A stretch of DNA of 64,000 bases from the NCBI RefSeq assembly GCF_036365525.1, contig NC_090374.1, positions 13,619,168 to 13,683,167 on the forward strand. The letters run 5' to 3'. Source of the stretch: Heterodontus francisci (lineage: Eukaryota). The position numbers and the translations under genes are program-made. This document shows, piece by piece, positions 1-62,862 of the stretch. Within the stretch, counting starts at the first letter, position 1. Every line of letters starts with the position of its first letter. The notes under the pieces were generated by a model. That model was not told where the DNA came from, did no database searches, and saw only the letters and a program-made list of their open reading frames with translations.

Positions 1-890
1 CCAGATGGTGCAGGTGGGGAAGGAAGAGCTCACCAGGAATGAAGGGTGGGACGTCTGACAAAATGACCCGTTGTGCAATGGCCTCCAGGGGGTCCACTGG
101 CAGAAAGATCCCGCCACAGTGAGCCGCTTGCTCAGGGCCAGGGTCACCACCCGCTCGGTCTTCAGGAAAAACACTGCCTTCCTGTACATTATAGAGGCTG
201 CAACAATGGCCGAAGGGCCAACAAACCTGGCCATTGACTTAACACAAACCTCTATCGTCATGTTCGGATGGACTTGGCTCTTGACTCAATGCTTTGATGT
301 TATTAGAGCAAACGGTGACGGGGCAACAGCTGCAGTAGCATATGTGCGAGAAAGCCCTGTCACCGGCAAAGAGGGTCTTGCCATCGTGTCGCAGAACCAT
401 GCCCACCCTTAAGAAATTAGGCTAACAACAGTTTTTAAACTAAAGCAATATGATGGGAGGGGTGGTGGTGGGGGTAGAGGAGAATACGGGTGCAAAGGAA
501 AAGGACAAGGAGAGGAGAGGATAGATGTTGCTGTGTTTCGTGGTTGGAGCACCTCACTGTAGAGTCTACAGTCTACAGTCCAGTCTTCCAGTTAGCGGAG
601 TGTTCTTCGCCCGGGTCAGTTAGAGCCGCCCGGTTCTTTCCTTTTCCGCTGTTCTCTAAAAACTGTGAAGACTTTCTTCAGCCGGCCAGCTCCTGCCATC
701 CCGAGCCACACAATTGGGGGTGGGGAGGGAGCCCCCTTTGTGCAGGATGGAAGGTAAACACAAGAGCAAGTACACGGGCTTCCCTATAGAATTTGGCAGC
801 CCCACCCCTGGATCTTCCGCACCTCCTCCCTTCCCCAACAGTCTAAGCAAAAAACAGTTCTCTGCTGCTCCAACACCCATAGGGATAGAT
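1..890 (-). mobile_element. 5' part of a degenerate Tx1-clade LINE (5'UTR plus ORF1 start at 384)
   Basis: Minus-strand translation MARPSLPVTG...VGPSAIVAAS..KAVFFLKTER is homologous to ORF1 of the element at 48352-53655; contains a stop and a frameshift. Confidence 0.8.
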
Positions 891-1063: not shown

Positions 1064-3814
1064 ATTAGAACATTAGAACATTACAGCGCAGTACAGGCCC
1101 TTCGGCCCTCGATGTTGCGCCGACCTGTGAAATCATCTGACCTACACTATTCCATTTTCATCCATATGTCTATCCAATGACCACTTAAATGCCCTTAAAG
1201 TTGGCGAGTCTACTACTGTTGCAGGCAGGGCGTTCCACGCCCCTACTACTCTCTGAGTAAAGAAACTACCTCTAACATCTGTCCTATATCTATCACCCCT
1301 CAACTTAAAGCTATGTCCCCTCGTGTTTGCCATCACCATCCGAGGAAAAAGACTCTCACTATCTACCCGATCTAACCCTCTGATTATCTTATATGTCTCT
1401 ATTAAGTCACCTCTCCTCCTCCTTCTCTCCAACGAAAACAACCTCAAGTCCCTCAGCCTTTCCTCGCAAGACCTTCCCTCCATACCAGGCAACATCCTAG
1501 TAAATCTCCTCTGCACCCTTTCCAAAGGTTCCACATCCTTCCTATAATGCGGTGACCAGAACTGCACGCAATACTCCAGGTGCGGCCTCACCAGAGTTTT
1601 GTACAGCTGCAGCATGATCTCGTGGCTCCGAAACTCGATCCCCCTACTAATAAAAGCTAACACACCATATGCCTTCTTAACAACCTGGGTAGCAACTTTC
1701 AGGGATTTATGTACCTGGATACCAAGATCTCTCTGCTCATCTACACTACCAAGAATCTTCCCATTAGCCCAGTACTCTGCATTCCTGTTACTCCTTCCAA
1801 AGTGAATCACCTCACACTTTTCCGCATTAAACTCCATTTGCCATCTCTCAGCCCAGCTCTGCAGCCTATCTATGTCCCTCTGTACCCTACAACATCCTTC
1901 GGCACTATCCACAACTCCACCGACCTTCGTGTCATCCGCAAATTTACTAACCCACCCTTCTACACCCTCATCCAGGTCATTTATAAAAATGACAAACAGC
2001 AGTGGCCCCAAAACAGATCCTTGCAGTACACCACAAGTAACTAAACTCCAGGATGAACATTTGCCATCAACTACCACCCTCTGTCTTCTTTCAGCTAGCC
2101 AATTTCTGATCCAAAGCTCTAAATCACCTTCAACCCCATACTTCTGTATTTTCTGCAATAGCCTACCATGGGGAACCTTATCAAACGCCTTACTGAAATC
2201 CATATACACCACATCCACTGCTTTACCCTCATCCACCTGTTTGGTCACCTTCTTGAAAAACTCAATAAGGTTTGTGAGGCACGACCTACCCTTCACAAAA
2301 CCGTGCTGACTATCGCTAATGAACTTATTCTTTTCAAGATGATTATAAATCCTATCTCTTATAACCTTTTCCAACATTTTACCCACAACCGAAGTAAGGC
2401 TCACAGGTCTATAATTACCAGGGCTGTCTCTACTCCCCTCCTTGAACAAGGGGACAACATTTGCTATCCTCCAGTCTTCCGGCACTATTCCTGTCGACAA
2501 TGACGACATGAAGATCAAGGACAAAGGCTCTGCAATCTCCTCCCTGGCTTCCCAGAGAATCCTAGGATAAATCCCATCTGGCCCAGGAGACTTATCTATT
2601 TTCACACTTTCCAAAATTGCTAACACCTCCTCCTTGTGAACCTCAATCTCATCTATCCTAGTGGTCTGAATCTCAGTATTCTCCTCGACAATATTTTCCT
2701 TCTCTACTGTAAATACTGACGAAAAATATTCATTTAACGCTTCCCCTATCTCCTCTGATTCCACACACAACTTCCCACTACTATCCTTGATTGGCCCTAA
2801 TCTAACTCTAGTCATTCTTTTATTCCTGATATACCTATAGAAAGCCTTAGGGTTTTCCTTGTTCCTATCCGCCAATGACTTCTCTTGTCCTCTCCTTGCT
2901 CTTCTTAGCTCTCCCTTTGGATCCTTCCTGGCTAGCTTGTAACTCTCAAGTGCCCTAACTGAGCCTTCACGTCTCATCCTAACATCAGCCTTCTTCTTCC
3001 TCTTGACAAACGCTTCAACCTCTTTAGTAAACCACGGCTCCCTCGCTCGACAACTTCCTCCCTGCCTCACAGGTACATACTTATCAAGGACACGCAGTAG
3101 CTGCTCCTTGAATAAGCTCCACATTTCGATTGTGCCCATCCCCTGCAGTTTCCTTCCCCATCCTACGCATCCTAAATCTTGCCTAATCGCATCATAATTT
3201 CCTTTCCCCCAGCTATAATTTTTGCCCTGCGGTATATACCTGTCCCTGCCCATCGCTAAGGTAAACCTAACCGAATTGTGATCACTATCACCAAAGTGCT
3301 CACCTACATCTAAATCTAACACCTGGCCAGGTTCATTACCCAGTACCAAATCCAATGTGGCATCGCCCCTGTTTGGCCTGTCTATATACTGTGTCAGAAA
3401 ACCCTCCTGCACACACTGGACAAAAACTGATCCATCTAAAGTACTCGAACTATAGTATTTCCAGTCAAAATTTGGAAAGTTAAAGTCCCCCATAACAACT
3501 ACCCTGTTACTCTCGCTCCTGTCGAGAATCATCTTCGCTATCCTTTCCTCTACATCTCTGGAACTATTCAGAGGTCTACAGAAAACTCCCAACAGGGTGA
3601 CCTCTCCTCTCCTGTTTCTAACCTCGGCCCATACTACCTCAGTAGACGAGTCCTCAAACGTCCTTTCTGCCGCTGTTATACTCTCCTTGATTAACAATGC
3701 CACACCCCCCCCTCTTTTACCATCTTCTCTGTTCTTACTGAAACATCTAAATCCCGGAACCTGCAACATCCATTCCTGCCCCTGCTCTACCCATGTCTCC
3801 GAAATGGCCACAAC
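1064..3814 (-). mobile_element. Young 5'-truncated CR1 LINE (copy A), uninterrupted partial EN plus RT frame
   Basis: ORF 1142-3832 has APE motifs (GDFN, SDH) and RT motifs (QGSVLGP, FADD); 3' tail (CTAATGTT)n. Near-identical to the copies at 19451-23768 and 32778-35514. Confidence 0.97.
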
Positions 3815-3856
3815 CTGTTCGGTTGGTGTCAATCTCAGCGTAGGTGCAGGAATTGT
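3815..3856 (-). CDS. Exon 7: tyrosine-motif exon (ITIM-like CTYAEI)
   Basis: Begins at the first AG after the pyrimidine tract tttcactcctgtttgtctt (an AAG acceptor); 42 nt, phase 1-1. Encodes DNSCTYAEIDTNRT. Its GT donor coincides with the 5' end of a CR1 insertion. Confidence 0.65.
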
Positions 3857-3919
3857 CTTGTGTTGTAAGACAAACAGGAGTGAAATAGTGTTATTCGTCC
3901 GACATATTTGTCCTTAGGT

Positions 3920-19450: not shown

Positions 19451-22400
19451 GGAGGTCCAGGGGACTGCTGGGTAAGTAAAAACTATATATTTGGGTGGTT
19501 TATAATCTCTTTCTTTTAGTTTTGGTGACTGCAGCTTTGACAGTAGCGAAGGTGCGAGAGCGAACTTACAGCTGGGAAGTCAATTTCAGTGGAAGTTTAA
19601 AAGTTAATTCCCTTTTGTTTTCGGAGGACCAGGGGACTGCTGGGTAAGTAAAAACTATATATTTGGGTGGTGGCTGTACCCGAGACACTACACGTGTAGT
19701 GTCTCCCACCCACCCTCCTCCTCTAACTAAAAAAAAAGGACTCTGTTGTGTTGATAAGGTAAGCTTTTTATTTAAGAAGTTCTGTCCGTTGGATTGCTAA
19801 CCTTACAAGTTTTGACTTTTTGTTTTTGGTTTTTCAGTAGATTTGTTGGGAATTTAGAATAGAGGGAATGGAAGTTAAGGCAGTTGTATGTTCCTCCTGC
19901 AGAATGAGGGAGGTAAGGGTCGCCAAGAGTGTCCCTGCTGACTGCATCTGCGGGAAGTGCACCCAACTCCAGCTCCTCGAGAACCGCGTTAGGGAGCTGG
20001 AGCTGGATGAACTTCGGATCATTTGGGAGGCGGAGGGGGTTATTGAGAGGAGTTATGGGGAGGTAGTCACACCTCAGGTAAAAGAAGTAGGTAGATGGGT
20101 TACCGTCAGGGGAAGGAGAGGGAACCAGCAGGCAGTGCAGGGATCCCCTGTGGCCGTTTCCCTCAACAACAGGTATACCGTTTTGGATACTGTTGCGAGG
20201 GACGACTTACCAGGGGTAAGCAATGGGGTACAGGTATCTGGCACAGAGTCTGTCCCTGTTGCTCAGAAGGGAAGGGGGAAGAGGAGCAGAGCATTAGTCA
20301 TTGGGGACTCCATAGTTAGGGGAACAGATAGGAGGTTCTGTGGGAACGAGAGAGACTCACGGTTGGTATGTTGCCTCCCAGGTGCCAGGGTTCGTGATGT
20401 CTCGGATCGTGTTTTTGGGATCCTTAAGGGGGAGGGGGAGCAGCCCCAAGTCGTGATCCACATAGGCACCAACGACATAGGTAGGAAGAGAGATGGGGAT
20501 TTAAGACAGAAATTCAGGGAGCTAGGGTGGAAGCTTAGAGCGAGAACAAACAGAGTTGTTATCTCTGGGTTGTTGCCCGTGCCACGTGATAGCGAAGCGA
20601 GGAATAGGGAGAGAGAGGAGTTGAACACGTGGCTGCAGGGATGGTGCAGGAGGGAGGGTTTTGGTTTCCTGGATAATTGGGGCTCTTTCTGGGGTAGGTG
20701 GGACCTCTACAAACAGGATGGTCTTCACCTGAACCAGAGGGGTACCAATATCCTGGGGGAGAGATTTGCTAGTGCTCTTCGGGGGGGGTTTAAACTAATT
20801 CAGCAGGGGAATGGGAACCTAAAATGTAGTGCCAGTGTACAGGATGTTGAGAGTAGTGAGGTCAGGGATAAGGTTACAAGGACGCAAGAGGGCACTGGCA
20901 AGCAAGAACCTGGTTTAAAGTGTGTCTACTTCAACGCCAGCAGCATTCGGAATAAGGTGGGTGAGCTTGCAGCACGGGTTGGTACCTGGGATCTCGATGT
21001 AGTGGCCATTTCGGAGACATGGGTAGAGCAGGGGCAGGAATGGATGTTGCAGGTTCCGGGATTTAGATGTTTCAGTAAGAACAGAGAAGATGGTAAAAGA
21101 GGGGGGGGGTGTGGCATTGTTAATCAAGGAGAGTATTACAGCGACAGAAAGGACGTTTGAGGACTCGTCTACTGAGGTAGTATGGGCCGAGGTTAGAAAC
21201 AGGAGAGGTGAGGTCACCCTGTTGGGAGTCTTTTATAGACCTCCAAATAGTTCCAGAGATGTAGAGGAAAGGATAGCGAAGATGATTCTCGACAGGGGCG
21301 AGAGCAACAGGGTAGTTGTTATGGGGGACTTTAACTTTCCAAATATCGACTGGAAATACTATAGTTCGAGTACTTTAGATGGGTCAGTTTTTGTCCAGTG
21401 TGTGCAGGAGGGTTTTCTGACACAGTATGTAGACAGGCCAACCAGGGGCGATGCCACATTGGATTTGGTACTGGGTAATGAACCCGGCCAGGTGTTAGAT
21501 TTAGATGTAGGTGAGCACTTTGGTGATAGTGATCACAATTCGATTAGGTTTACCTTAGCGATGGGCAGGGACAGGTATATACCGCAGGGCAAAAATTATA
21601 GCTGGGGGAAAGGAAATTATGATGCGATTAGGCAAGATTTAGGATGCATAGGATGGGGAAGGAAACTGCAGGGGATGGGAACAATCGAAATGTGGAGCTT
21701 ATTCAAGGAGCAGCTACTGCGTGTCCTTGATAAGTATGTACCTGTGAGGCAGGGAGGAAGTTGTCGAGCGAGGGAGCCGTGGTTTACTAAAGAAGTTGAA
21801 GCGCTTGTCAAGAGGAAGAAGAAGGCTTATGTTAGGATGAGACGTGAAGGCTCAGTTAGGGCGCTTGAGAGTTACAAGCTAGCCAGGAAGGATCTAAAGG
21901 GAGAGCTAAGAAGAGCAAGGAGAGGACACGAGAAGTCATTGGCGGATAGGATCAGGGAAAACCCTAAGGCTTTCTATAGGTATATCAGGAATAAAAGAAT
22001 GACTAGAGTTAGATTAGGGCCAATCAAGGATAGTAGTGGGAAGTTGTGTGTGGAATCAGAGGAGGTAGGGGAAGTGTTAAATGAATATTTTTCATCAGTA
22101 TTTACAGTAGAGAAAGAAAATGTTGTCAAGGAGAATACTGAGATTCAGGCTACTAGGCTAGATGGGATTGAGGTTCACAAGGAGGAGGTGTTAGCAATTT
22201 TGGAAAGTGTGAAAATAGATAAGGCCCCTGGGCCAGATGGGATTTATCCTAGGATTCTCTGGGAAGCTAGGGAGGAGATTGCAGAGCCTTTGTCCTTGAT
22301 CTTTATGTCGTCATTGTCGACAGGAATAGTGCCGGAAGACTGGAGGATAGCAAATGTTGTCCCCTTGTTCAAGAAGGGGAGTAGAGACAGCCCTGGTAAT

Positions 22401-23768
22401 TATAGACCTGTGAGCCTTACTTCGGTTGTGGGTAAAATGTTGGAAAAGGTTATAAGAGACAGGATGTATAATCATCTTGAAAAGAATAAGTTCATTAGCG
22501 ATAGTCAGCACGGTTTTGTGACGGGTAGGTCGTGCCTCACAAACCTTATTGAGTTTTTCGAGAAGGTGACCAAACAGGTGGATGAGGGTAAAGCAGTGGA
22601 TGTGGTGTATATGGATTTCAGTAAGGCGTTTGATAAGGTTCCCCATGGTAGGCTATTGCAGAAAATACGGAAGTATGGGGTTGAAGGTGATTTAGAGCTT
22701 TGGATCAGAAATTGGCTAGCTGAAAGAAGACAGAGGGTGGTGGTTGATGGCAAATGTTCATCCTGGAGTTTAGTTACTTGTGGTGTACCGCAAGGATCTG
22801 TTTTGGGGCCACTGCTGTTTGTCATTTTTATAAATGACCTGGAAGAGGGTGCAGAAGGTTGGGTTAGTAAATTTGCAGATGACACTAAGGTCGGTGGAGT
22901 TGTGGAAAGTGCCGAAGGATGTTGTAGGGTACAGAGGGACATAGATAGGCTGCAGAGCTGGGCTGAGAGATGGCAAATGGAGTTTAATGCGGAAAAGTGC
23001 GAGGTGATTCACTTTGGAAGGAGTAACAGGAATGCAGAGTACTGGGCTAATGGGAAGATTCTTGGTAGTGTAGATGAACAGAGAGATCTTGGTCTCCAGG
23101 TACATAAATCCCTGATGGTTGCTACCCAGGTTAATAGGGCTGTTAAGAAGGCATATGGTGTGTTCGCTTTTATCAGTAGGGGGATCGAGTTTCGGAGCCA
23201 CGAGGTCATGCTGCAGCTGTACAAAACTCTGGTGAGGCCGCACCTGGAGTATTGCATGCAGTTCTGGTCACCACATTATAGGAAGAATGTGGAAGCTATG
23301 GAAAGGGTGCAGAGGAGATTTACTAGGATGTTGCCTGGTATGGAGGGAAGGTCTTACGAGGAAAGGCTGAGGGACTTGATGTTGTTTTCGTTGGAGAGAA
23401 GGAGGAGGAGAGGTGACTTAATAGAGACATATAAGATAATCAGAGGGTTAGATAGGGTGGATAGTGAGAGTCTTTTTCCTCGGATGGTGATGGCAAACAC
23501 GAGGGGACATAGCTTTAAGTTGAGGGGTGATAGATATAGGACAGATGTCAGAGGTAGTTTCTTTACTCAGACAGTAGTAGGGGCGTGGAACGCCCTGCCT
23601 GCAACAGTAGTAGACTCGCCAACTTTAAGGGCATTTAAGTGGTCATTGGATAGACATATGGATGAAAATGGAATAGTGTAGGTCAGATGGTTTCACAGGT
23701 CGGCGCAACATCGAGGGCCGAAGGGCCTGTACTGCGCTGTAATGTTCTAATTCTAATTCTAATTCTAA
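19451..23768 (+). mobile_element. Full-length young CR1 LINE (copy B): 5'UTR, ORF1 (zinc finger plus SGNH esterase), ORF2 (APE EN plus RT)
   Basis: ORF1 from 19868 has CSSC..CICGKC, GDSIVRG, HIGTND and DGLHLN. ORF2 runs to 23681; tail (TTCTAA)n. The 5' boundary is approximate. Confidence 0.96.
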
Positions 23769-31228: not shown

Positions 31229-31691
31229 TACTGTATCGGTAGGCGTCAACCGAATAGAGTTTAAGCTTTAATTTAATAAATTTCAACTTTTCTTCTTTAA
31301 ACCTAAGAAAGACTGTTTGTGCTGGTTTCTTTGCCTTATAATTGGAAAGCAGTGAACAAGGATTCACCAAGGGGGAGCTAAAAACAAGGTGTGTTTAAAA
31401 TTAAACCCTCTTACAGTAAAACCAGGTGAGGAACCCTGGACCCCGTTCTCACCCGGTCTTAACACCAGTTTGAACAGGTCAAATCAGCGAGTGTGCCAAA
31501 CACCGCAGGAGGCTTGGGAGACAGGTGATGGAATGGTCTAGAAATAGTCTCTCTCCTTCTTACTGCCTCCTGCCTCAGGTCAACTGAGAGAGCCCAGGAC
31601 AGGGAGCAAAACCCGAAACCTACCAGACCAGGTGGAGTCTTTAGCCATTGAGCTACCGGGGCAGCTGCAGCCCCTGAATATTGTTCCTCAC

Positions 31692-32084
31692 CTTCCACTC
31701 TCAGACTCGTTAGTTTCTGTGTTTGAAATTGTCCAACAGTGAGCTCCACACGACACTGATAAGGACCACTGTCCGCCCGGATCAGCCGCTCCATCATTAT
31801 TGAGACATCTTTGTTACTGAAGTTCCCCACGAATCTGAATCGATTCCCGCCGTCCTGTTGTTTCACATCCTCACACAGCTCACTCTGTGAATGGCCCGGA
31901 CCAGAATATGTACACTTAAAAATAACATTGTAATCCCATGAATCGCGGTTGTACCATGTCACAGAGCCGGTGACCGTCTGATCAGTGTGTGGGTGGGTGA
32001 AAGTACACGGCAAGACAGCGGACCCTCCTTCCTCAACACTCACATCATCCGCAGCGCTCATTGTCCAACCATTCTCAGAAAACT
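31692..32084 (-). CDS. Exon 2: Ig V-set domain 1, Siglec-15-like, with essential Arg
   Basis: Acceptor (ct)n-ccacag|, donor GAAG|gtgagg, 393 nt, phase 1-1. Encodes WTMSAADDVSVEEGGSAVLPCTFTHPH...VTW...IFKC..SELC...RFRFVGN...DSGPYQCRVEL, which matches the Siglec-15 V-domain motifs AVLPCTFTHPH, FRC..SELC, RFRLLGN and YFCRVEF. Confidence 0.93.
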
Positions 32085-32777
32085 CTGTGGAGAGAGAGAG
32101 AGAGAATATTAAAACAGCACAGGGACAGAGAATACTGTTTCAAAATCAAACTGTGAGACAATATACTGAGTCTGTTATATAGTGACAACAGATATAACAT
32201 CGTATGGTCAGATTGGGATGTTTATATACAGAAATCAGACACTGGAGTGAGTTACAGACTGGAATATAACCGAGGGTTCCAGATGGTTTGTAAAAATCCT
32301 CTGTTCCCAAGGTTCGAGTTCAGGTGTTTGATATAATTTTTTCTGCTTCATTTGTTTGAAGAGGGGGTTTGGTCATACTTTTTCCAGCTCTGACGTGAGT
32401 CAGAGTTTTCTGAACTGTCTCCATTGTGTTAGGAGACCCAGAGTTGTCTGAAGACTCTCACTCAAGATGTATTTCCTATCCACCACCACTTTCTACTCTA
32501 TTGCCGAGCCAGACCTCATCATTTGTCAGTCGTGCCACAGTCTTTGAGCTGGTTTAAAAGTCTCAAATGTGAAACTTGAAACAATGCCTTCGAAATTCAC
32601 GGAGATTCTATACCTTTATCTTTTAAGAGTTCCCATGGATTTGTCAGGTAAAACATTCCAAACCATGTTCCATAGACAAATAAAAACATTTTCTGTGCCT
32701 GGGGTTTGGGAATCTTTGGAATTCTTTACTCCAGAGAGCTGCAGATGCTTGTGCGGAGGGTTCAGGGGAAGGTAGAG

Positions 32778-35514
32778 TTAGAAATTGGAACATTAGAACA
32801 TTACAGCGCAGTACAGGCCCTTCGGCCCTCGATGTTGCGCCGATCATCTGACCTACACTATTCCATTTTCATCCATATGTCTATCCAATGACCACTTAAA
32901 TGCCCTTAAAGTTGGCGAGTCTACTACTGTTGCAGGCAGGGCGTTCCACGCCCCTACTACTCTCTGCGTATAGAAACTACCTCTGACATCTGTCCTATAT
33001 CTTTCACCCCTCAACTTAAAGCTATGTCCCCTCGTGTTTGCCATCATCATCCGAGGAAAAAGACTCTCACTATCCACCCTATCTAACCCTCTGATTATCT
33101 TGTATGTCTCTATTAAGTCACCTCTCCTCCTCCTTCTCTCTAACGAAAACAACCCCAAGTCCCTCAGCCTTTCCTCGTAAGACCTTCCTTCCATACCAGG
33201 CAACATCCTAGTAAATCTCCTCTGCACCCTTTCCAAAGCTTCCACATCCTTCCTATAATGCGGTGACCAGAACTGCACGCAATACTCAAGGTGTGGCCTC
33301 ACCAGAGTTTTGTACAGCTGCATCATGACCTCGTGGCTCCGAAACTCGATCCTCCTACTAATAAAAGCTAACACACCATATGCCTTCTTAACAGCCCTAT
33401 TAACCTGGGTAGCAACTTTCAGGGATTTATGTACCTGGACACCAAGATCTCTCTGCTCATCTACACTACCAAGAATCTTCCCATTAGCCCAGTACTCTGC
33501 ATTGCTGTTACTCCTTCCAAAGTGAATCACCTCACACTTCTCCGCATTAAACTCCATTTGCCATCTCTCAGCCCAGCTCTGCAGCCTATCTATGTCCCTC
33601 TGTACCCTACAACACCCTTCGACACTATCCACAACTCCACCGACCTTCGTGTCATCCGCAAATTTACTAACCCACCCTTCTACACCCTCATCCAGGTCAT
33701 TTATAAAAATGACAAACAGCAGTGGCCCCAAAACAGAACCTTGCGGTACACCACTAGTAACTAAACTCCAGGATGAACATTTGCCATCAACCACCACCCT
33801 CTGTCTTCTTTCAGCTAGCCAATTTCTGATCCAAAGCTCTAAATCACCTTCAACCCCATACTTCCGTATTTTCTGCAATAGCCTACCGTGGGGAACCTTA
33901 TCAAACGCCTTACTGAAATCCATATACACCACATCCACGGCTTTACCCTCATCCACCTGTTTGGTCACCTTCTCGAAAAACTCAATAAGGTTTGTGAGGC
34001 ACGACCTACCTTTCACAAAACCGTGCTGACTATCGCAAATGAACTTATTCTTTTCAAGATGATTATAAATCCTATCTCTTATAATCCTTTCCAACATTTT
34101 ACCCACAACCGAAGTAAGGCTCACAGGTCTATAATTACCAGGGCTGTCTCTACTCCCCTTCTTGAACAAGGGGACAACATTTGCTATCCTCCAGTCCTCC
34201 GGCACTACTCCTGTCGACAATGACGACATAAAGATCAACAACAACGGCTCTGCAATCTCCTCCCTGGCTTCCCAGAGAATCCTAGGATAAATCCCATCTG
34301 GCCCAGGGGACTTATCTATTTTCACTCTTTCCAAAATTGCTAACACCTCCTCCTTGTGAATCTCAATCCCATCTAGCCTAGTAGGCTGTATCTCAGTAAT
34401 CTCCTCGACAACATTTTCTTTCTCTACTGTAAATACTGATGAAAAATATTCATTTAACGCTTCCCCTATCTCCTCCGATTCCGCACACAACTTCCCACTA
34501 CTATCCTTGATTGGCCCTGTTCTAACTCTTATCATTCTTTTATTCCTGATTTACCTATAGAAAGCCTTAGGGTTTTCTTTGATCCTATCCGCCAATGACT
34601 TCTCGTGTCCTCTCCTTGCTCTTCTTAGCCCTCCCTTTAGATCCTTCCTGGCTAGCTTGTAACTCTCAAGCGCCCTAACTGAGCCTTCACGCCTCATCCT
34701 AACATAAGCCGCCCTCTTCCTCTTGACAAGCGCTTCAACTTCTTGAGTAAACCACGGCTCCCTCGCTCGACAACTTCCTCCCTGCCTGACAGGTACATAC
34801 TTATCAAGGACACGCATTAGCTGCTCCTTGAATAAGCTCCACATTTCGTTTGTGCCCATCCCCTGCAGTTTCCTTCCCCATCCTACACATCCTAAATCTT
34901 GCCTAATCGCGTCATAATTTCCTTTCCCCCAGCTATAATTCTTGCCCTGCGGTATATACCTGTCCCTGCCCATCGCTAAGGTAAACCTAACCGAATTGTG
35001 ATCACTATCGCCAAAGTGCTCACCTACATCTAAATCGAACACCTGTCCGGGTTCATTACCCAATACCAAATCCAATGTGGCATCGCCCCTGGTTGGCCTG
35101 TCCACATACTGTGTCAGAAAACCCTCCTGCACACACTGGACAAAAACAGACCCATCTAAAGTACTCGAACGATAGTATTTCCAGTCATTATTTGGAAAGT
35201 TAAAGTCCCCCATAACCACTACCCTGTTACTCTCGCTCCTGTCGAGAATCATCTTCGCTATCCTTTCCTCTGCATCTCTGGAACTATTCGGAGGTCTATA
35301 GAAAACTCCCAACAGGGTGACCTCTCCTCTCCTGTTTCTAACCTCGGCCCATACTACCTCAGTAGACGAGTCCTCAAACGTCCTTTCTGCCGCTGTAATA
35401 CTTTCCTTGATTAACAATGCCACACCCCCCCCTCTTTTACCATCTTCTCTGTTCTTACTGAAACATCTAAATCCCGGAACCTGCAACATCCATTCCTGCC
35501 CCTGCTCTACCCAT
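32778..35514 (-). mobile_element. Young 5'-truncated CR1 (same family as copies A and B), single nonsense codon
   Basis: ORFs 34551-35489 and 32853-34535 are in the same frame, split by a TAT>TAA change at 34551-34553; CTAATGTT tail. Confidence 0.96.
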
Positions 35515-36053
35515 TGCAGAAAAGTCAGGACAATAGAATAGTGGTAGCAATGTGGGTAAAGGCAAGCAGAGTGGGACAGGAAGGGACAGAGTGTTTAACG
35601 GTAATAATGCATCAGTGAATAAGGTCCATGCAAAGAACAATAAATAGGGCCCTACCAAATTCATGGTCAAATTTTACAAATTTCTCGGACATGGCATTTT
35701 TAGAATAATAAATTTCAGTGTCGCAACAAGCCATGAAAATGATCTATTTAAAAAAAGACGAGAGGTTTCTGGTGTCAAATGGCATTTATTATATACTGAA
35801 AAACTATTGTTAAAAAGCTGACTATAAACAGGTTTCATTCTTTACCTGCTGAAGTCAGTGGTTGAATGTGAGCATGGAGTCTCACACGCATTAATCTGAG
35901 ATTTCATCTCCTCACAATGTGTAGCAAACAGCTTTGGTAGGTAATCCTGTCATAGTTTATTTGCACTTGGCAAGCAACCACCATTTTGCACATTGTGTCG
36001 GCTGACTACCAGCAGTTTTGGCGGATCAGGTTTTTCCAAGGCTATGTCTCTTG

Positions 36054-48199: not shown

Positions 48200-48351
48200 C
48201 AAACACTCCCAGGACAGGTACAGCACAGGTTAGACACAGAGTAAAGCTCCCTCTACACAAAAAAAAACGGGGTTAGATACAGAGTAAAGCTCCCTCTACA
48301 CTGTCCACATCAAACACTCAACACTCCCAGGGCAGGTATAGCACTGGGGTT
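48200..48351 (+). repeat. Two to three units of the ~67-bp minisatellite, continuing at 53656-53705
   Basis: ggttagatacagagtaaagctccctctacactgtcc is the reverse complement of the array at 61571-62180. Confidence 0.85.
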
Positions 48352-51300
48352 GGCTGCTTCCTAATTAGGACTCCAAAGTGCATCAACGAGGTGCAGCTGA
48401 CAGTGCTGCAGTCAGTTGCTGGAGGTGCTGCTGGAGGAGTGCTGAGGAGAAACTGCAAAAACTTTGAACAACATTTGCTGCAGAGGAGGAAAGACTTTTG
48501 GAATAAGCCTGTATTTCGAGGTGGGTGTTGAGCACCAGACTTTTATTTCATTTGGACTGTTGTGGGAGGTGGAAGAGGCCAGAAAAACAAGGGGTGGGGG
48601 CTATACAATTCTGCAGGGAGCTGTGCAGTTGCACTAAAGTTGCAGGGAAGCTCCCTCCCCACCTCAATTGCCCAGCCCGAGTCAGCTGAAGCTGCCTGGC
48701 TAATATACAGAAGGGGATAAGTAGTGCCTGGGCAGTTTCAGCTGACCCAGGTGAAGACGCCTCCCCCAACCAGAAGACCGTAAGACCAAGTGTGCTGGCA
48801 GAGACTGTTTCAAGTGTGATGTGTGCACCACCTCCAGAAAGGAAAAGAAAGTCATCCCTTACAGCCTGTCTTTCCCTCTCCTCTATTCGCTCAGCCGCTC
48901 CCCTAACCTGTTGTTTGTTTGTTTGTTTTGTGCATCTTAAAGTTTTCAAGCCTACAATTTGGGGTGGGTTAGCTCTTAGACCCATGGCAAGCCCTTCATC
49001 ACAGGTGGCGGGGCCCTCTAAAACCTATGCAGCTGCAGCCTCTGTGGCTGCCCACGTGACCCCATCACCCTTTAAATTAATAATATCAAGCCATGGGGTG
49101 AAGAGCTATCCCTACCCCAACATGTCCACTGAGACCTGCGTGAAGGCAATGGCCGAGGTTGTCGGCCCTTCGGCCATTGTTGCGGCCTCAAAGATGTATG
49201 GGAGGCAGTGTTTTTTCTAAAGACCGAGCGGGCAGTGTCCCTGGCCCTGAATAAGGGGCTCACTGTGGGGGGGACCTTCCTGCCGGTGGACCCTCTGGGG
49301 GCCACTGCGCAGCGGATAATGTTATCCAACGTCCCACCCTTCATTCTCAGTGAGCTCCTCCTCCCTCACCTGCACCATCTGGGGGAGGTGAGGTCAGGGA
49401 TCACCCCAGTCCGGCTTGGTCTTCGGGAGCACAGCCTCCAACATGTCTACTCCTTCTGCCGCCAGTTATTTATGCAGCTGGCGCGGGAGGAGGACTCGGA
49501 AGGCCAATTTAATGTGCAGTTCCAGGGGATGGCCTACCGCGTCTTTTGGACCTCGGACGGGGCGCGGTGCCATGTCTGCAAGGCGGTGGGGCATGTTCGT
49601 AAGAACTGCCCCAACCTCCCGGCCGCCAGCTCCACCTCTGGGGCGAGGCCCCAGAGGGTCGGCCCTCCCAGCCGGAGTCCACCACCAACCAGGAGACACC
49701 TGACCCGGTTACAACTGAGAATGCTGCCCCATCTGCTGGGCCTGTGGGTGCTGGCGGAGCGGGAGATGGCTTCCTCCCTCCACCTCCGGTCTCGGTTCCG
49801 GCTGTATTTCTGGAGTCAGGAACTTCTGTCTCCCCTGGACCACTCATTGGCCTGGGGACGGAGGTGGAGGGGGGTCCTGGACTGCTGGCACCCACAGGCT
49901 CCAGTTTCACAGTAGAACCCAGAGAGGACTCCTCCGCCATCGATCCTGGGGGTGGGATTGTGACGGAGGCAGGACCAGCTAGCGCGGCCGGGATGTCCGC
50001 CCCACAGTGTGTGGTGGATGTGTCGGCCACTGGCAGTGACGACCCGGAGGAGGATGGGGATTCGGTGTGGGGCACGGAGGATGAACTTGATTCCATCGCC
50101 AGTGAGGTGGTGGAGTCCCTCGTGCCTCCCACCGAATCTCTCATCACCACGGCGGAACTCCGGGATTTCCTCGTGGCTTGCAGGGGTTGCCGCGATAAAG
50201 TTCAGCTGGCCCTCGGCCGTTGGTCGAATCTGGCGCTGATCAGACAGTCCGTCCGTGCTGCCCTGAAGAAAGCAGGCAAGCGCGCGGGCGTGAAACTGGT
50301 TGAGAGGCGCCGTTTTAATGTGTTCCTCAATGGGTTGCTGGGGGAGTGGAAGGCCAGGTGCACTTCCACTCGCTCCTCACAGTGAGCTGTTGGTGACGGG
50401 TTTTAAGTACCTTTGACATGAAGATAACCATAGCCAGCCTCAACATCAACGGCAGCAGGGGGTCTCACCACAGATTTCACAATCTCTCAGTCCTCAGGGA
50501 AGGGAGATACGCGGTGAGCTTTCTGCACTTTAACAACCGGCTGCTGGAGGACGAGCGATTTCGGGACTCGTTCTGTCAATTCTGGGCCGACTGGAGAAGG
50601 AAGCAGGGGGGCTTCCCCTCCTAGTGGCTATGGTGGGATGTGGGTAAGACTCACATCCGCGTCTTCTGTCAGGAGTACGCGAAGGGGTCGACCAAGAGGC
50701 GGGAAGCCGAGATCGGGCGCCTTGAGAGGGAGGTGTTCGACTTGGAGTCCCGCCTCGGTCATGCCGTCGTAGACCCGGCCCTGTGGCAGGCGTACAAAGA
50801 GAAGAAGGGCGTGCTGAGGGACCTGCAGCTCATACGGTCCCAAAGCACGTATGTGAGGTCGCGGATCCAGATCCTGGAAGATTTGGACTGCGCCGCACCC
50901 TTCTTCTACTCGCTGGAAAAATGGCCGGGGGTCCGTAAGCAGCTCATTGAGCTGCTGGCCGACGACGGATCCTCCATCACGGATCCGGAGGGAATGGGCC
51001 TCCTGGTCCGTACTTATTACAGTGCGTTGTTCTCTCCGGATCCGTCCAGCGAAGATGCGCGCAGAGTTTTGTGGGAGGACCTGCAGCAGGTCAGCCCGGA
51101 GGGCGCCGACGGACTGGAAGCTCCGCTCACGTTGGCGGAGCTGACTGGCACCCTCCACCAGCTCTCAAGGGGCAAATCCCCAGGGCTGGATGGGTTGACC
51201 GTGGAGTTCCTCAGGGCGTTCTGGGACGTCCTGGGGGACGATTACGCGCGGGTCCTGGGAGAAAGCCTGGCGACCGGGGAGATGCCCCTCTCGTGGTGAA

Positions 51301-53655
51301 GGGCGGTCATCGTCCTGCTGCCGAAGAGGGGCTATCTCCGCCTGCTTAAAAACTGGCGTCCGGTCTCCCTCCTCAGCACGGATTATAAGATCTTTGCCCG
51401 GGCTATGTCTACCCGCCTGGGCTCCGTGTTGGCCCACATGATCCACCCCGACCAGTCCTACACAGTCCCGGGCCGGTCCATCCAGGACAACATCCACCTG
51501 GTCCGGGACCTGGTCCATCTTTCCCAGAGGTCTGGTCAGTCAGTCGCCTTTCTCGTCCTCGATCAGGAGAAGGCGTTCGACAGGGTGGATCACGAATACC
51601 TTTTCGGGACTCTGCGCGCTTTCAGACTTGGGCCGCATTTCGTGGCCCGGGTCCGACTCTTATACGCCGCCGCAGTGTCTAGTCAAAGTTAACGGGTCCT
51701 TGACAGCGCCCCTTCGCTTTGGGAGAGGAGTGCATCAGGGATGCCCCATGTCCGGCCAATTGTATACCATCTGCGTGGAGCCCTTGCTGTGCCTGTTTCG
51801 CAGGAGGTTGACGGGATTGGCTCTGCGCGAGCCGGCCATGTGAGTTGTCCTCTCGGCTTATGCCGACGACGTGCTCCTCGCAGTCACAGATCCCGTTGAC
51901 TTGCGGAGGATGCGCGACTGCCAGCAGACCTTTTCTGCCGCGTCCTCCGCGAGCATCAACTGGGAGAAATGTTCCGGACTCCTGGTGGGTCAGTGGCGGG
52001 TGGACTCCCTGCCGGAGGAGATGCCACCTTTTGCATGGAGCACCACGCACCTCCTCTATCTGGGAGTCCACCTTAGCCCCGCTGAGGAAGCCTGGCCGGC
52101 AAACTGGCAGGAGTTGGAGGCGAAAGTCACCGCTCGGCTGGGGCGCTGGACAGGACTGCTCCGAGTGCTTTCCTAGAGGGGCCGAGCGCTGGTCATAAAC
52201 CAACTGGTGACCTCCATGCTGTGGTACCGGTTGGTCACTTTGGCCCCGCCCTCTGTAATTGCCACCAAGATCCAGAAGAAACTCGTCGATTTCTTCTGGG
52301 GCAAGAGGAAACACTGGATCTCTGCCGCGGTCCTGAGTCTCCCGATTGAGGAGGGCGGCCAGTTGCTGGTGTGCGTCCGCACCCAGGCTGCGACTCTCCG
52401 CCTTTGGACCCTGCAGAGATACCTGTACGTCGAGCGTCCTCCCAGATGGTGTGCACTGGCGACGTATTTTTTCCGCCAGTGTCACTGCCTTCAAGACGAC
52501 ACGCAGCTCCCGGTGGAGTCCGTTAGCCGCGCCTCTCTGAGGGAGTTGCCTGTCTTTTACTGGGATCTATTCCGAGTCTGGAACATGGGCGCCTCCAGTC
52601 AGGGCGCTCCCCCGCCGGCGGAGGAGAGCGCCTCGGCTGTCCGGGCGGCCGACTCCGGGGACGGTCCGGCAGGCGGAGGAGTAGTCGAAACCCCCTGGAC
52701 GCCCCTCACTGCAGGTGGGGAGGGGGCTCGTGAGTGCGGAACTCTCCCGGCCGAGCTGACCTCCGCTCGGCCGGAACTGCTCATCGGACCCAGGCCCCGA
52801 AACCCTCCTCGGGAGCTGGTCCCACACAACCCGAGCCGCCTCTCGGAAATGCCCTCCGTGCCATTCCAATCGGTGCGGGGGAGTTTCCTGTACGGGCTGC
52901 TCCTGTACACTCTCCACTTCCTCGCCCTCGTCAGCTGGCCGGACACGCCCTGGCGGTCCGCGTTGCTATCTGGCGGCGAGGGAAACCCCGATGGAGGCCT
53001 CTCTACGTGGGAGTCTTCCCCCTTTATTTTGGGGACCTGGGGTGGAGGGCAGTCCCGTGCAATCGACTTTTAAGTAGGTTCACGGACTCCCAGGCCGCCT
53101 GTACTTTCTGCAGCCTGGACATGTCCGTGTTTCACATATATACCGAGTGTGCGAGGTTGCAGCCCCTCTTTGAGTATTTGAAGGGGCTGCTCCTCAAGTT
53201 CTGGCTGCACTTCAGTCCCATGCTCCTGATCTTTGGGCACCCGGTGCGGAGGGGCGTGGGCCGGGAGGAGGATCTCCTCGTCGGTCTGCTCCTGGCCTGG
53301 CCAAGGTGGCAATTCACAGGTCCAGGCTGCGGGCCGTCGGGGGGGTCTGTCCTTCCCGATTGCCTGCCCCTCTTCCGCGGTTATGTTTGCGCCCGGGTGT
53401 CCCTGGAGAGGGAGCATGCGGTGTCTGCCAGTACGCTTGAGGCCTTCCGTGAGCGGTGGGCACCGCAGGGACTGGAGTGCATCATCGATGCTGAGAATGG
53501 CATTTTAATTTGAGTTTTTTGTTTATTTATCTGTTTTTAATAGTTATTTTAAAAATATGTATATAAAGGGGGCCTGAGGAATAAAGGCCCCCTCGACATG
53601 AAATATATAAAAGGGGCCTGGGGTATAAAGGTCACCTTCAAGGAAAAAAAAAAAA
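48352..53655 (+). mobile_element. Nearly full-length Tx1-clade LINE (L1 group), pseudogenised
   Basis: ORF1 from 48984 has the CCHC knuckle CHVCKAVGHVRKNC. ORF2 from 50418 (MKITIASLNING) has a large EN deletion near 50525, RT motifs DQEKAFDRV, QGCPMSG and YADD, and a C-terminal Cys/His motif. Also a 3'UTR hairpin, an A12 tail and a probable TSD (tggggtt/tggagtt). Confidence 0.92.
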
Positions 53656-56600
53656 TGGAGTTAAATACAGAGTAAACCTCCCTCTCCGCTGTCCCAGCAA
53701 ACACTTGCATGTCAGCTGTTTGGTCTATGTACACTCTTTAGAACATCTATACTTACTCTCCTGATCCCTTCTGCCAGAATGTATCACTTCACACTTGTCT
53801 GTATTAAAGTCCATCTGCCACTTGTCTGCGCATTCTGCAAGTCCAGTCCTGTTGCAGTCAATTGGTATCATACTGTTTGCCCACCTCCAAGTTTGATATC
53901 ATGGACAAAGTTTGAAATTTTGCTCTATATTCCAATATCCAATATCCAAGCCATTATATATATGTATTTTTAAAAAAGCAATGGTCCTCGCATTGAATCT
54001 TAGGGAACACCAATGTATATTATCTTTCAGTCTGAAAAACAACAATTTACCAGTTTTCTCTCTTTAAGCCAATTTTTTTTTTCATTCAAGTTGACACTCC
54101 CTCCTAGTCCATGAGCCTTTTAACCAGCCTTTTCTGTGGTACTTTCTCAAATGCTTTCTTAAAGTTCATAGACAACATCCATTATTTTCCCTTCATCAAC
54201 CTTCTCTTGTTACTTCATCAGAAAATTTAATTAGAATTTCAATTATCAGCAAAGTGATGGAAGGCATAATCAACAATGCTGTCAAGCATCACTTCCTCAC
54301 TAATAACCTGCTCACCATGCTTAGTTTGGGTTCCGCCAGGACCACTAGGTTCCAGACCTCATTACAGCCTTGGTCCAAACATGGACAAAAGAGCTGAAAT
54401 CCACAGGTCAGGTTGAGAGTAACTGCCCTTGATCTGATGTAAGCATTTGATCTGTCAAAACTCTTTATAATTTTGAACTCAGTTTCATCTCCCATTAAAC
54501 TTCTCTGCTCTAAGAAGAAAAATCCTAATTTCTCTAATCTCTCCACATGAAGCAAGTTCTTCATCCCTCCTATCATTCTCATTCAATCGTCTCAGCCCCA
54601 GGATATCACTGTAGAAGTACCTCCGGGCAGTGTCCTAGGCCCAACTATCTTCAGCTGCTTCATTAATACCTTGCCCTCCCTCAAAAGGTTCACTGATAGC
54701 ACAATGTTCAGTTCCATTTGCAACTCCTCGGATAATGAAGCAGTGTGTGGCTGCATGCAGGAAGACCTAGACAACATTCTGATGAAAGGTCACTGACCTG
54801 AAACGTTAACTCTGCTTCTCTCGCACAGATGCTGCCAGACCTGCTGAGTATTTCCAACATTTTTTTTTGTATTCATTTCAGATTTCCGGCATCTGCAGTA
54901 TTTTGCTTTTATTTTAGACAACATTCAGGCTTGGGCTGATATGTGGCAAATAATATTTATGCTGCACGAGTACCAGGCACTGACTATCTGCAATGAAAGA
55001 GTCTAACCTCTTCCCCTTGACATTCAACTGCATTACCTTCACCGAATACCCCACCATCAACATTTTGGGAATCACCATTGACCAGAAACTTAACTGGACA
55101 AACCATACAAACCATACTGTGGCTACAAGAGCAGGTCACAGGCTGGGAATTCTGCAGAGAGTGACTCACCTCTTAACTCCCCAAAGCCTTTCCAACATCT
55201 ACGAACATACGAATTAGGTGCAATAGTAGGCCACTTGGCCGCTCGAGCCTGCTCTGCCATTCAACATCATGGCTGATCTGAATGTAACCTCAATTCAACA
55301 TTCCCACCTACCCCCAATAACCTTTCAGCCCCTTGCTTATCAAGAATCTATCTACCTCTGGCTTAAAAATATTCAAAGACTACTTCCACCACCTTTTGAG
55401 GAAGAGTGTTTAAAAGACTCTCAACCCTCTGAGAGAAAATAATTCTCCTCATCTCTGTCTTAAATGTGGGACCCCCTAATTCTAGATTCTCCCACAAGTG
55501 GAAACACCATTTTTTGACAGGGAATCCACCCTGTCAAGACCTCTCAAGATCTTATATGTTTCAACCAAGTCTCTTACTCTTCTAAACTCCAGTGGATACA
55601 AGCCTAGCCTGTCCAACCTTTCGTCATAAGACAACCCACCCATTCCAGGTATTAGTATATTAAACGTCTATGAACTGCTTTCAACGCATTTACATCCTTC
55701 CTTAAATAAGGAGACGAATACCATGCACAGTACTCCAGATGTAGTCTCACCAATGCCCTGTATAGCTGAAGCATAACCTCCTTACTTTTGTATACAATTT
55801 CCCTCATAATAAACGATAACATTCTATTAGCTTTCCCAATTACTTGCTGTACATGTATACTAACCTTTTGTGATTCATGCATGATGACACCCAGATCCCT
55901 CTGCATCTGAGCTCTGCAAGCTCTCACCATTTAGATAATGTGCTCCTTTTTTATTCTTCCTTCCAAAATGGACAATTCACATTTTCCTACATTATATTCT
56001 ATTTGCCAGATCTTTGCCCACTCATTTAACCTACCTACATTCCTTTGTAGCCCCCTTATGTCCTCTTCGCAACTTATTTTCCTACCCATCTTTGTGTCAT
56101 GAGCAAATTTAGCATCCATACATCATCTCTTCTTCTAAGTCATTTATAGAAATTGTAAAAAGTTGAGGCCGCAGCACTGATCCCTGCAGCACACCACTCG
56201 TTACATCTTGTCAACCAGAAAATGACCCATTTATGCCTACTCTCTGTTTCCAGTTAGCTAGCCAATCTTCTATCTGTGCCACTATGTTACCCACTACATC
56301 ATGAGCTTTAATTTTCCACAATAACCTTTGATGTGGTACTTTATCAAATGTCTTTTAGAAATCTAAATACAGTACATCCACCGGTTCCCCTTTATCCACA
56401 GCACATGTTACTTCAAAGTCCAATAAATTGGTTAAACATGATTTCCCTTTCATAAAGCCATTTTTCTAAGTGCCCTGCTATAACGTCGTTAATAAGCTTC
56501 CAACATTTTCCCTATGACAGATGTTAAGCTAACTGGCCTGGTAGTTTCCTGCTTTCTGTCGCCCTCCCTTTTTGGAATAAAGGAGTTACATTCCAACCTA

Positions 56601-61570: not shown

Positions 61571-62180
61571 TCCCCGTGCTTTACCTGCCCTGGGAGTATT
61601 TGTTGGGACCCTGCAGAGGGAGCCTTACTCTGTATCTAACCCCTGCTGTAGCTGCACTGGGAGCGTTTGATGGGACAGTGTAGAGGGAGCTTTACTCTGT
61701 ATCTAACCCCGTGCTGTAGCTGCACTGGGAGTGTTTGATGGGACAGTGTAGAGGGAGTTTTACTCTGTATCTAACCTGTGCTGTACCTGCCCTGGGAGTG
61801 TTTGATGGGACAGTGTAGAGGGAGCTTTACTCTGTATCTAACCCCGTGCTGTAGCTGCACTGGGAGTGTTTGATGGGACAGTGTAGAGGGAGTTTTACTC
61901 TGTATCTAACCTGTGCTGTACCTGCCCTGGGAGTGTTTGATGGGATAGTGTAGAGGGAGCTTTACTCTGTATCTAACCCCTGCAGTAGCTGCACTGGGAG
62001 TGTTTGATGGGACAGTGTCGAGGGAGCTTTACTCTGTATCTAACCCCTGCTGTAGCTGCACTGGGAGTGTTTGATGGGATAGTGTAGAGGGAGCTTTACT
62101 CTGTATCTAACCCCTGCAGTAGCTGCACTGGGAGTGTTTGATGGGATAGTGTCGAGAGAGCTTTACTCTGTATCTAAACC
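61571..62180 (+). repeat. Minisatellite, ~67-68 bp unit, ~9 copies
   Basis: Unit ctttactctgtatctaacccc(g)tgctgtagctgcactgggagtgtttgatgggacagtgtagagggag, repeated head-to-tail. Confidence 0.95.
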
Positions 62181-62862
62181 ATTTTTTTTCTTTTATTGGG
62201 GGGGGACTGTGTACAGGGGGCTTTATACTCGATCTAACTTGTGCTATTCAGAGGGTTGCCAACCCTCCCTGATTGCCTTGGGAATTGACGAGGGATCTCC
62301 CAGGCACTCCATTTAGTGACACAGAACAAAAGTACTTTCCATGTGTGATTCATGCCCGTGTGGCTCAATTCCCACTGCAACAAAAATGTTGAACTGTCTA
62401 TTTAAAAAAATAATGTTCATTGTATCTTCTGTTTTTTTTCCAAAAATAGAAAGTAAACTCAAATGACAAATAGCCAGTTGGACATTACACAATCCAAAGT
62501 CATGATTAATAACCAATCTGCACTGGAAAGCTGTCGGAGGTGAGGGGGCTAACAATTTGTGAATTAACCACTCGCATCACCACTCAACAGAAATCCAGAA
62601 GCTAGCAGCTGCAGTGACTTAAAATGTACTGGTTTTAAATCCAGATGAAGAATATTCGAAGTTCATGTGGCAACATAGGGCTGAATTTATTCAGCCAGTA
62701 GAAGTGGGCTCAGAGGCATGGAGGGCAGAAAAATCGGGAGAGGATGTGCTCGCCTGGAACTCCAATGCCGTGACTTTGGTTCCAGATTTTGTCAGCGGCA
62801 GAAAAGGTCCAAGACAGGTTTGTTGCAATGATGCAGCAGGACTGAAACCGACCTTGGTGATA

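Follow-up and report, generated by a model that had tools for sequence, protein, structure and literature searches.

Does a transposable element that interrupts a repeat unit lie there by chance or through the choice of its own endonuclease, and can it take the repeat along when it moves? These questions are raised by a stretch of 64,000 nucleotides from the shark Heterodontus francisci (NC_090374.1, 13,619,168-13,683,167, forward strand), hereafter the window, within which coordinates are given. In the window, a copy of a long interspersed nuclear element (LINE) spans 48344-53655, inserted at CAGC^ACGGGG of a minisatellite. The interpretation that we favor, with a probability of roughly 85%, is that a Tx1L-like LINE family has its copies at this single base of a dispersed minisatellite, likely through a nick made by its own endonuclease, and that its off-target copies often carry downstream repeat, likely as a result of read-through.

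At the left junction, the interrupted minisatellite unit reads ...caggtatagcac, up to 48344, where the element begins; at the right junction, a run of 12 adenines (A12, 53644-53655) is followed by the unit, which resumes as tggagttaaatacagagtaaa (53656-53705), with no second A-tract after this right part of the interrupted unit. A bare A9 (48259-48267) stands directly before cggggttagatac and, on the minus strand, an A-rich tract (62182-62197) stands directly before tggtttagatac. All three junctions had been picked out in a preliminary description of the locus, and all lie where it placed them. Its reading of the element as inserted within a unit that resumes in register also holds, but the 5′ "tggggtt" that it took for a piece of the unit is better read as the element's own head. 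The A9 may represent an abortive or extremely 5′-truncated insertion. The window element itself is dead, a copy of a 6.6-kb Tx1L-like LINE with two deletions: measured against the related copy L077 (93% identity along the length) and the intact copy L068, it has lost ~610-630 bp of open reading frame 1 (ORF1) and ~625 bp of the endonuclease, so that it keeps the reverse transcriptase (RT) while most of the endonuclease domain is gone. Its ORF2 remnant has several stops and frameshifts.

The identity of the family was established from L068, which is 6.6 kb long and has an open ORF1 of 678 amino acids and an open ORF2 of 1,245 amino acids (P0001, the intact homolog of the window's ORF2 remnant). 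P0001 contains an Exo_endo_phos domain (residues 6-226), i.e., an apurinic/apyrimidinic endonuclease (APE), and an RVT_1 domain (511-762), and is 50% identical over its full length to the ORF2 of Xenopus Tx1L. In an RT phylogeny of 19 rows, midpoint-rooted and without an L1 or Keno reference, it groups with Xenopus Tx1L and with ray, sturgeon and turtle rows (support 100/99). Identity and clade support confirm the placement in the Tx1 clade first proposed from the letters of the window. The closest named protein is a Heterodontus francisci model (91% identity). The ORF1 of L068 gave no Pfam match at E 0.05, and a CCHC zinc knuckle (zf-CCHC) in the ORF1 remnant of the window copy, at E 0.0098, fell below the Pfam cut-off. 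The family has A-rich tails, 5′ truncation and target-site duplications, has no long terminal repeats, and couples several types of 5′ untranslated region (UTR) to the same ORF2 and the same insertion site. Two named identities were considered and rejected: Tx1L proper, which targets Tx1D, as the flanks here consist of tandem units whose ends are ragged and which have no outer flanks in common; and Keno, Kibi or Koshi, which target U2 small nuclear RNA (snRNA) genes or (TC)n/(TTC)n, as the target here is a unit of 67-69 bp and an Rfam scan of the window at gathering scores returned no matches.

If the insertion in the window is typical, the 3′ flanks of the family should be enriched for GGTTAGATACAGAG, as had been predicted from this one locus, and they were, far above chance. 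An exact 13-mer of the unit lay 5-35 nt downstream of 602 of the 1,740 exact tail motifs in the genome (35%), against an expectation of 0.4-2 if the genome holds 100,000-500,000 units. Among the 29 best other copies, counted by eye, the unit followed 26, the element head one and neither of them two. For a positional sample we took 79 of the 1,740 tails, those that come first by position (contigs C1 and C2 and the start of C3); automated classification made errors here (four 3′ UTR duplications, nested insertions and one AT-rich false duplication), and six sites were moved by hand. On the 3′ side, a script found the unit in register after 60 of the 79 tails, the head after 2 and other sequence after 17, one of the last being a diverged unit by eye. 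On the 5′ side, 35 tails had, directly upstream, either the left half of the unit or a chain of A-tracts in register, which 41 lacked, with three unscorable (35/76). Target preference is common in the Tx1 clade, with satellites among the listed targets, and the available text of the relevant survey takes as its criterion that more than 20% of copies are flanked by one repeat type (Kojima 2015, PMC4494074); the shark family exceeds this by each measure (35% exact, 60/79, 35/76).

None of the 35 on-target tails is more than 21 Mb from a contig end. This would suit an alternative explanation in which a preference for subtelomeric chromatin, with recombination between repeats, produced the association without any sequence-specific nick. 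We regard this as scarcely credible, because it is contradicted by the register of insertion: in the fetched loci, which were chosen for the element and are thus enriched for it, 156 of 164 A8 tracts preceding unit sequence end no more than 2 nt from a single phase, and no such tract stands before antisense unit. Other LINE tails in the same loci lacked the enrichment, CR1/L2-type control tails having the unit within 70 nt in only 4 of 123 cases and never in register after an A-tract.

The copies in chromosome interiors were of a different kind. All 27 were 5′-truncated (≤1.6 kb) and lacked unit upstream, and in 13 of them the tail was followed by unit DNA, which in every case began at the target position. 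As the unit lies only downstream in these copies, part of the 3′ enrichment is cargo. An extreme version of this idea, in which the unit is nothing but part of the element RNA, insertion is not sequence-specific and the enrichment is hitchhiking, would explain why 13 of the 27 have unit downstream and none upstream, but we consider it very improbable. The 35 of 76 scorable tails that have the left half or an A-tract chain upstream include truncated copies; these 5′-truncated copies, cut at many internal positions, adjoin the unit's left half, which shows the unit to be a genuine target as well as cargo. Their existence largely refutes the idea. In addition, every full-length head seen comes after the unit's left half or an A-tract, and C^A is kept at off-target sites. 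The last point comes from the target-site duplications. Among tails first classed as lacking upstream unit, 21 of 47 had a duplication score of at least 8 (one being a chance AT-rich match), compared with 1 of 300 shuffled pairs. At 24 hand-picked sites the median duplication was 14 bp, with A as the first base in 19 and a purine at +4 in 23; the preceding base, which by construction is never A, was C in 20. The C^A and the +4 purine are an echo of CAGC^ACGGGG.

Full-length copies had no visible 14-bp duplication, and their junction reads CAGCA-C[T/G]GGG[A/G]TTGGCTG. The variable base was T at 24 of 35 heads, compared with 20 of 186 units in the arrays, overlapping loci having been partly deduplicated; across the genome, 931 heads had T and 102 had G. 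As CTGG occurred on the element's own 3′ side in only 2 of 18 T-headed copies, the bias toward T indicates that the head is element sequence that mimics the right half of the target. There were also 171 heads directly behind an A8 tract, and among the 100 listed, 45 had G and 55 had T by hand count, an excess of G over intact heads with an odds ratio of 7.5. We hypothesize that T-heads are protected from re-insertion, which the odds would put at about 7-fold less; it can only be a hypothesis, since the order of events cannot be read from the sequence. An A-tract followed by a head arises either from a new copy on an old head or from a new full-length copy behind an old tail, and joining of the latter kind, or subfamily age, could account for the excess of G. 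We lean against this explanation while taking it seriously: some truncated copies (L018, L098) duplicate head sequence, so that heads do serve as targets, and the odds ratio of 7.5 also counts against it.

The unit DNA behind interior tails bears the marks of transposition. Of the 13 copies with cargo, a second A-tract closes 12 and a scored duplication encloses 7, and six further cargo inserts of this kind were found near chromosome ends. In the duplication-scored set the cargo ranged from 6 bp up to 223 and 277 bp. The largest example, L227, has about eight units within a 646-bp insert with a 14-bp duplication; at another, L127, the host repeat was found contiguous, without the unit, in 42 matches (overlapping loci not deduplicated). 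These duplication-bounded inserts mean that the repeat has been transported to new locations, including, in some cases, complete target sites, as in the multi-unit seeds at L227, C2_112638245 and C1_148331359. Transduction of unit DNA at the 3′ end is therefore real. Parts of the element were also found in 16 sequence runs from six studies; the four examined are contigs, mostly of material only guessed to be RNA, and are uninformative on transcript ends. One contig in run X9, from another organism (organism C), ends with a tail, a short piece of target, a second A-tract and unrelated sequence, a single contig that faintly resembles transduction. Separately, A-tracts in many tails (e.g., L002, L023 and L029) are short (~9-12 nt), and between them stand ever longer prefixes of the target (C, CG, CGGGG, CGGGGTTAG...), a pattern suggestive of abortive priming that recurred at a single site.

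How much of the repeat has been spread in this way is a different matter. The unit, 67-69 bp long, is dispersed in the genome: a 29-mer on the element strand had 11 matches in the window and none in shuffles, and one exact 35-mer had 15,688 occurrences in the genome of 6.0 Gb, against none for the control. The arrays are short and ragged-ended within unrelated flanks. Together with full-length heads they concentrate on small chromosomes and toward the ends of large ones, the interiors holding only short off-target copies. The proposal that the element is the main source of the arrays, most of them descending from transduced seeds that later grew by slippage or unequal exchange and whose ends have since disappeared, gains from this co-clustering of element and arrays near chromosome ends and from the three multi-unit seeds with intact target sites. 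We nevertheless think it unlikely. A terminal A-tract or duplication was present at none of 18 unit-only clusters, the exact 35-mer far outnumbers the 1,740 exact tails, and interior seeds are still short. No real flanking duplication was found at 42 clusters starting with the unit, the window's own among them, so that the usual ragged arrays, including that of the window, are not explained by simple transduction. It is likely that transduction seeds some arrays, although not demonstrably most. The suggestion in the preliminary description that the element may spread the repeat by 3′ transduction is thus upheld by the duplication-bounded unit inserts, but not as a general source of arrays, most of which lack the hallmarks.

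Other origins for the repeat fared no better. A circular-DNA or duplication-bounded origin of ordinary arrays was rejected, as there was no shared start or end phase by eye and no flanking duplication; so was the possibility that the unit is part of a larger element, as 10 singleton units had no shared flanks except for one duplicated region. A look for the repeat in other taxa through spurious translated ORFs, which is weak evidence, found nothing. The unit may resemble the Deu domain of SINEs (short interspersed nuclear elements). The available text of PMC5499810 makes no mention of a tandem repeat or minisatellite.

Several smaller observations concern the arrays. At L057/L058 (G000:C1:9681246-9682084) and at G000:C4:105875642-105875821 there is a secondary tandem repeat of about 10 copies, each composed of the first ~35 bp of the unit plus A9; it is an insertion scar turned new minisatellite. 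Next to clusters there is often another short tandem repeat, of about 33 bp (L024, L096, L097). In the window, gcaaacact occurs at both ends of the cluster (48200 and 53697-53705), a possible 9-bp microhomology or duplication that failed the duplication test.

These findings can be combined in a model. A nick by the APE endonuclease would open the bottom strand at C^A, with off-target sites retaining a weak CANC^A..R core, and target-primed reverse transcription would then begin on a short A-tract. Cleavage of the top strand about 14 nt downstream would yield the ~14-bp duplications of truncated copies. Full-length complementary DNA (cDNA), in contrast, would end in the target-like head (C[T/G]GGG[A/G]TTGG) and could anneal to the CGGGGTTAG overhang of the top strand, as proposed for R1 and R2 elements carrying target sequence (PMC2718515, PMC3774820), giving uniform junctions without a visible 14-bp duplication. 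Read-through RNA, polyadenylated within an array or primed at a downstream bare A-tract, would move from 6 bp to about eight units, and heads and bare A-tracts would regenerate targets, leading to head-to-tail trains of elements in subtelomeric arrays.

Several points weigh against this interpretation. What the analysis shows directly are sequence patterns, from which the enzymology and the RNA ends are deduced. Specificity is leaky, since 17 of 79 tails have neither unit nor head after them and 41 of 76 have no unit upstream; the earlier reading of a site-specific family on the minisatellite is supported, with a specificity that is incomplete. Two chromosomes, together with three sites on another, make up the positional sample. 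A later hit in a transduced seed is here indistinguishable from co-transduction, and ordinary ragged arrays, including the window's cluster, are without the hallmarks of transduction.

Comparisons with known systems are drawn from the available parts of the papers cited. Tx1L of Xenopus laevis (ORF2, P0005, the YTX2 entry) is likewise a two-ORF APE-RT LINE of the same clade. It inserts at a fixed site in another repeat, the DNA transposon Tx1D (PMC4494074, PMC1950540), and its endonuclease is site-specific, with a hairpin loop that affects specificity (PMC1950540). The shark family differs in its target, in a hairpin loop four residues shorter, and in exporting its target, whereas no target export by Tx1L is reported in the available text of PMC4494074 and PMC1950540. 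It shares target preference and tandem insertion with Keno/U2, Kibi, Koshi, Tx1-Mar and satellite-targeting Tx1 elements, lying well above the 20% criterion, and differs from them in using the 67-69-bp minisatellite; the available text of PMC4494074 contains no mention of sharks. R1 of Drosophila, an APE element of another clade specific for 28S ribosomal DNA (rDNA), resembles it in its 14-bp duplications, in forming tandem trains, in having off-target copies where the sequence is partly similar, and in taking flanking target DNA along (PMC2718515). R1 carries no more than 14 nt of flanking target from downstream and 7-28 nt from upstream (PMC2718515), whereas the shark family moves entire units, and also arrays of several units in which target sites are intact. 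Its target is also non-coding and dispersed, unlike that of R1. R2 elements of earwig and sow bug have uniform 5′ junctions and a slightly mutated target copy at the 5′ end, like the shark family, for which cDNA-target annealing is the explanation given (PMC3774820). R2 differs in using a restriction-like endonuclease and a ribozyme; no Rfam match was obtained in the shark window. A literature search of open papers, with four unit motifs included and Repbase/Dfam and supplements not covered, returned no description of this LINE family or repeat. The family is a genuine case of target specificity in a Tx1L-like LINE, with a target that is new and is exported in unusually large amounts; each of its mechanisms has precedent, and the combination at this scale is new.

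The features of the insertion site are collected in Table 1. The far end of the nine-unit array adjoins a CR1/L2-type tail. Elsewhere in the window, a second, older copy of the family (1-880, minus strand; L231; 86% identity to L068) is truncated at either end, and no unit was detected next to it; just upstream of it lies an intact-looking APE-RT LINE frame (1142-3913, minus strand). Two further APE-RT LINEs occupy 19841-23681 (plus strand) and 32853-35594 (minus strand). The former has a GDSL-esterase-type ORF1, as do CR1/L2 elements. An open frame at 31459-32139 (minus strand) encodes an immunoglobulin V-set domain (E 2e-13) and is probably an exon of an immunoglobulin-superfamily gene.

Table 1. 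Minisatellite and LINE features around the insertion site, in window coordinates (TRF, Tandem Repeats Finder)
Feature	Position	Strand	Remark
Minisatellite, 3′ part of one unit and first ~30 bp of the next	48200..48258	+	Left ragged end of cluster
Bare A9 tract	48259..48267	+	Ends at target position
One minisatellite unit with small internal duplication	48268..48342	+	Ends at putative cut site CAGC^A
Element head, (A)CTGGGGTTGGCTG	48343..48356	+	Mimic of target's right half; element-specific T
5′ UTR	48344..48983	+	L064/L077 subfamily type, 93% identity to L077
ORF1 remnant	48984..50385	+	Frameshifted; ~610-630 bp deleted at ~49641-49644
ORF2 remnant (APE endonuclease-RT)	50418..53513	+	~625 bp of endonuclease deleted at ~50525-50527
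3′ UTR	53514..53639	+	
A-rich tail	53640..53655	+	A12 at 53644-53655
Right part of interrupted unit, ~50 bp	53656..53705	+	88% to window units; ragged end
Nine-unit array of 67-bp minisatellite	61572..62177	-	Opposite orientation to element; TRF: 61573-62177, period 67, 9.0 copies
Bare A-rich tract	62182..62197	-	Same target position as A9 and element
Diverged partial unit	62198..62245	-	Upstream of the 62182-62197 A-tract

Site-specific LINEs usually rely on a target that is maintained by the host (rDNA, snRNA, telomere) or spread by another transposon. Here the LINE moves its own target, in pieces large enough to hold complete landing sites, and the co-evolution of target specificity with dispersed minisatellites becomes directly testable. 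The intact copies, near to the well-studied Tx1L in their endonuclease but with a shorter hairpin loop and another target, form a natural pair with it for the study of APE specificity. How LINEs attach their 5′ ends is an open question, and the difference between full-length copies on the target and truncated copies away from it is relevant here. A more tentative idea, which we think doubtful, is that of a self-seeding LINE-minisatellite pair, in which whole target arrays are exported and the seeds later hit, the head allows full-length completion only on the repeat, and a one-base change in the head shields resident copies. If that is true, a self-seeding LINE would build and police its own niche.

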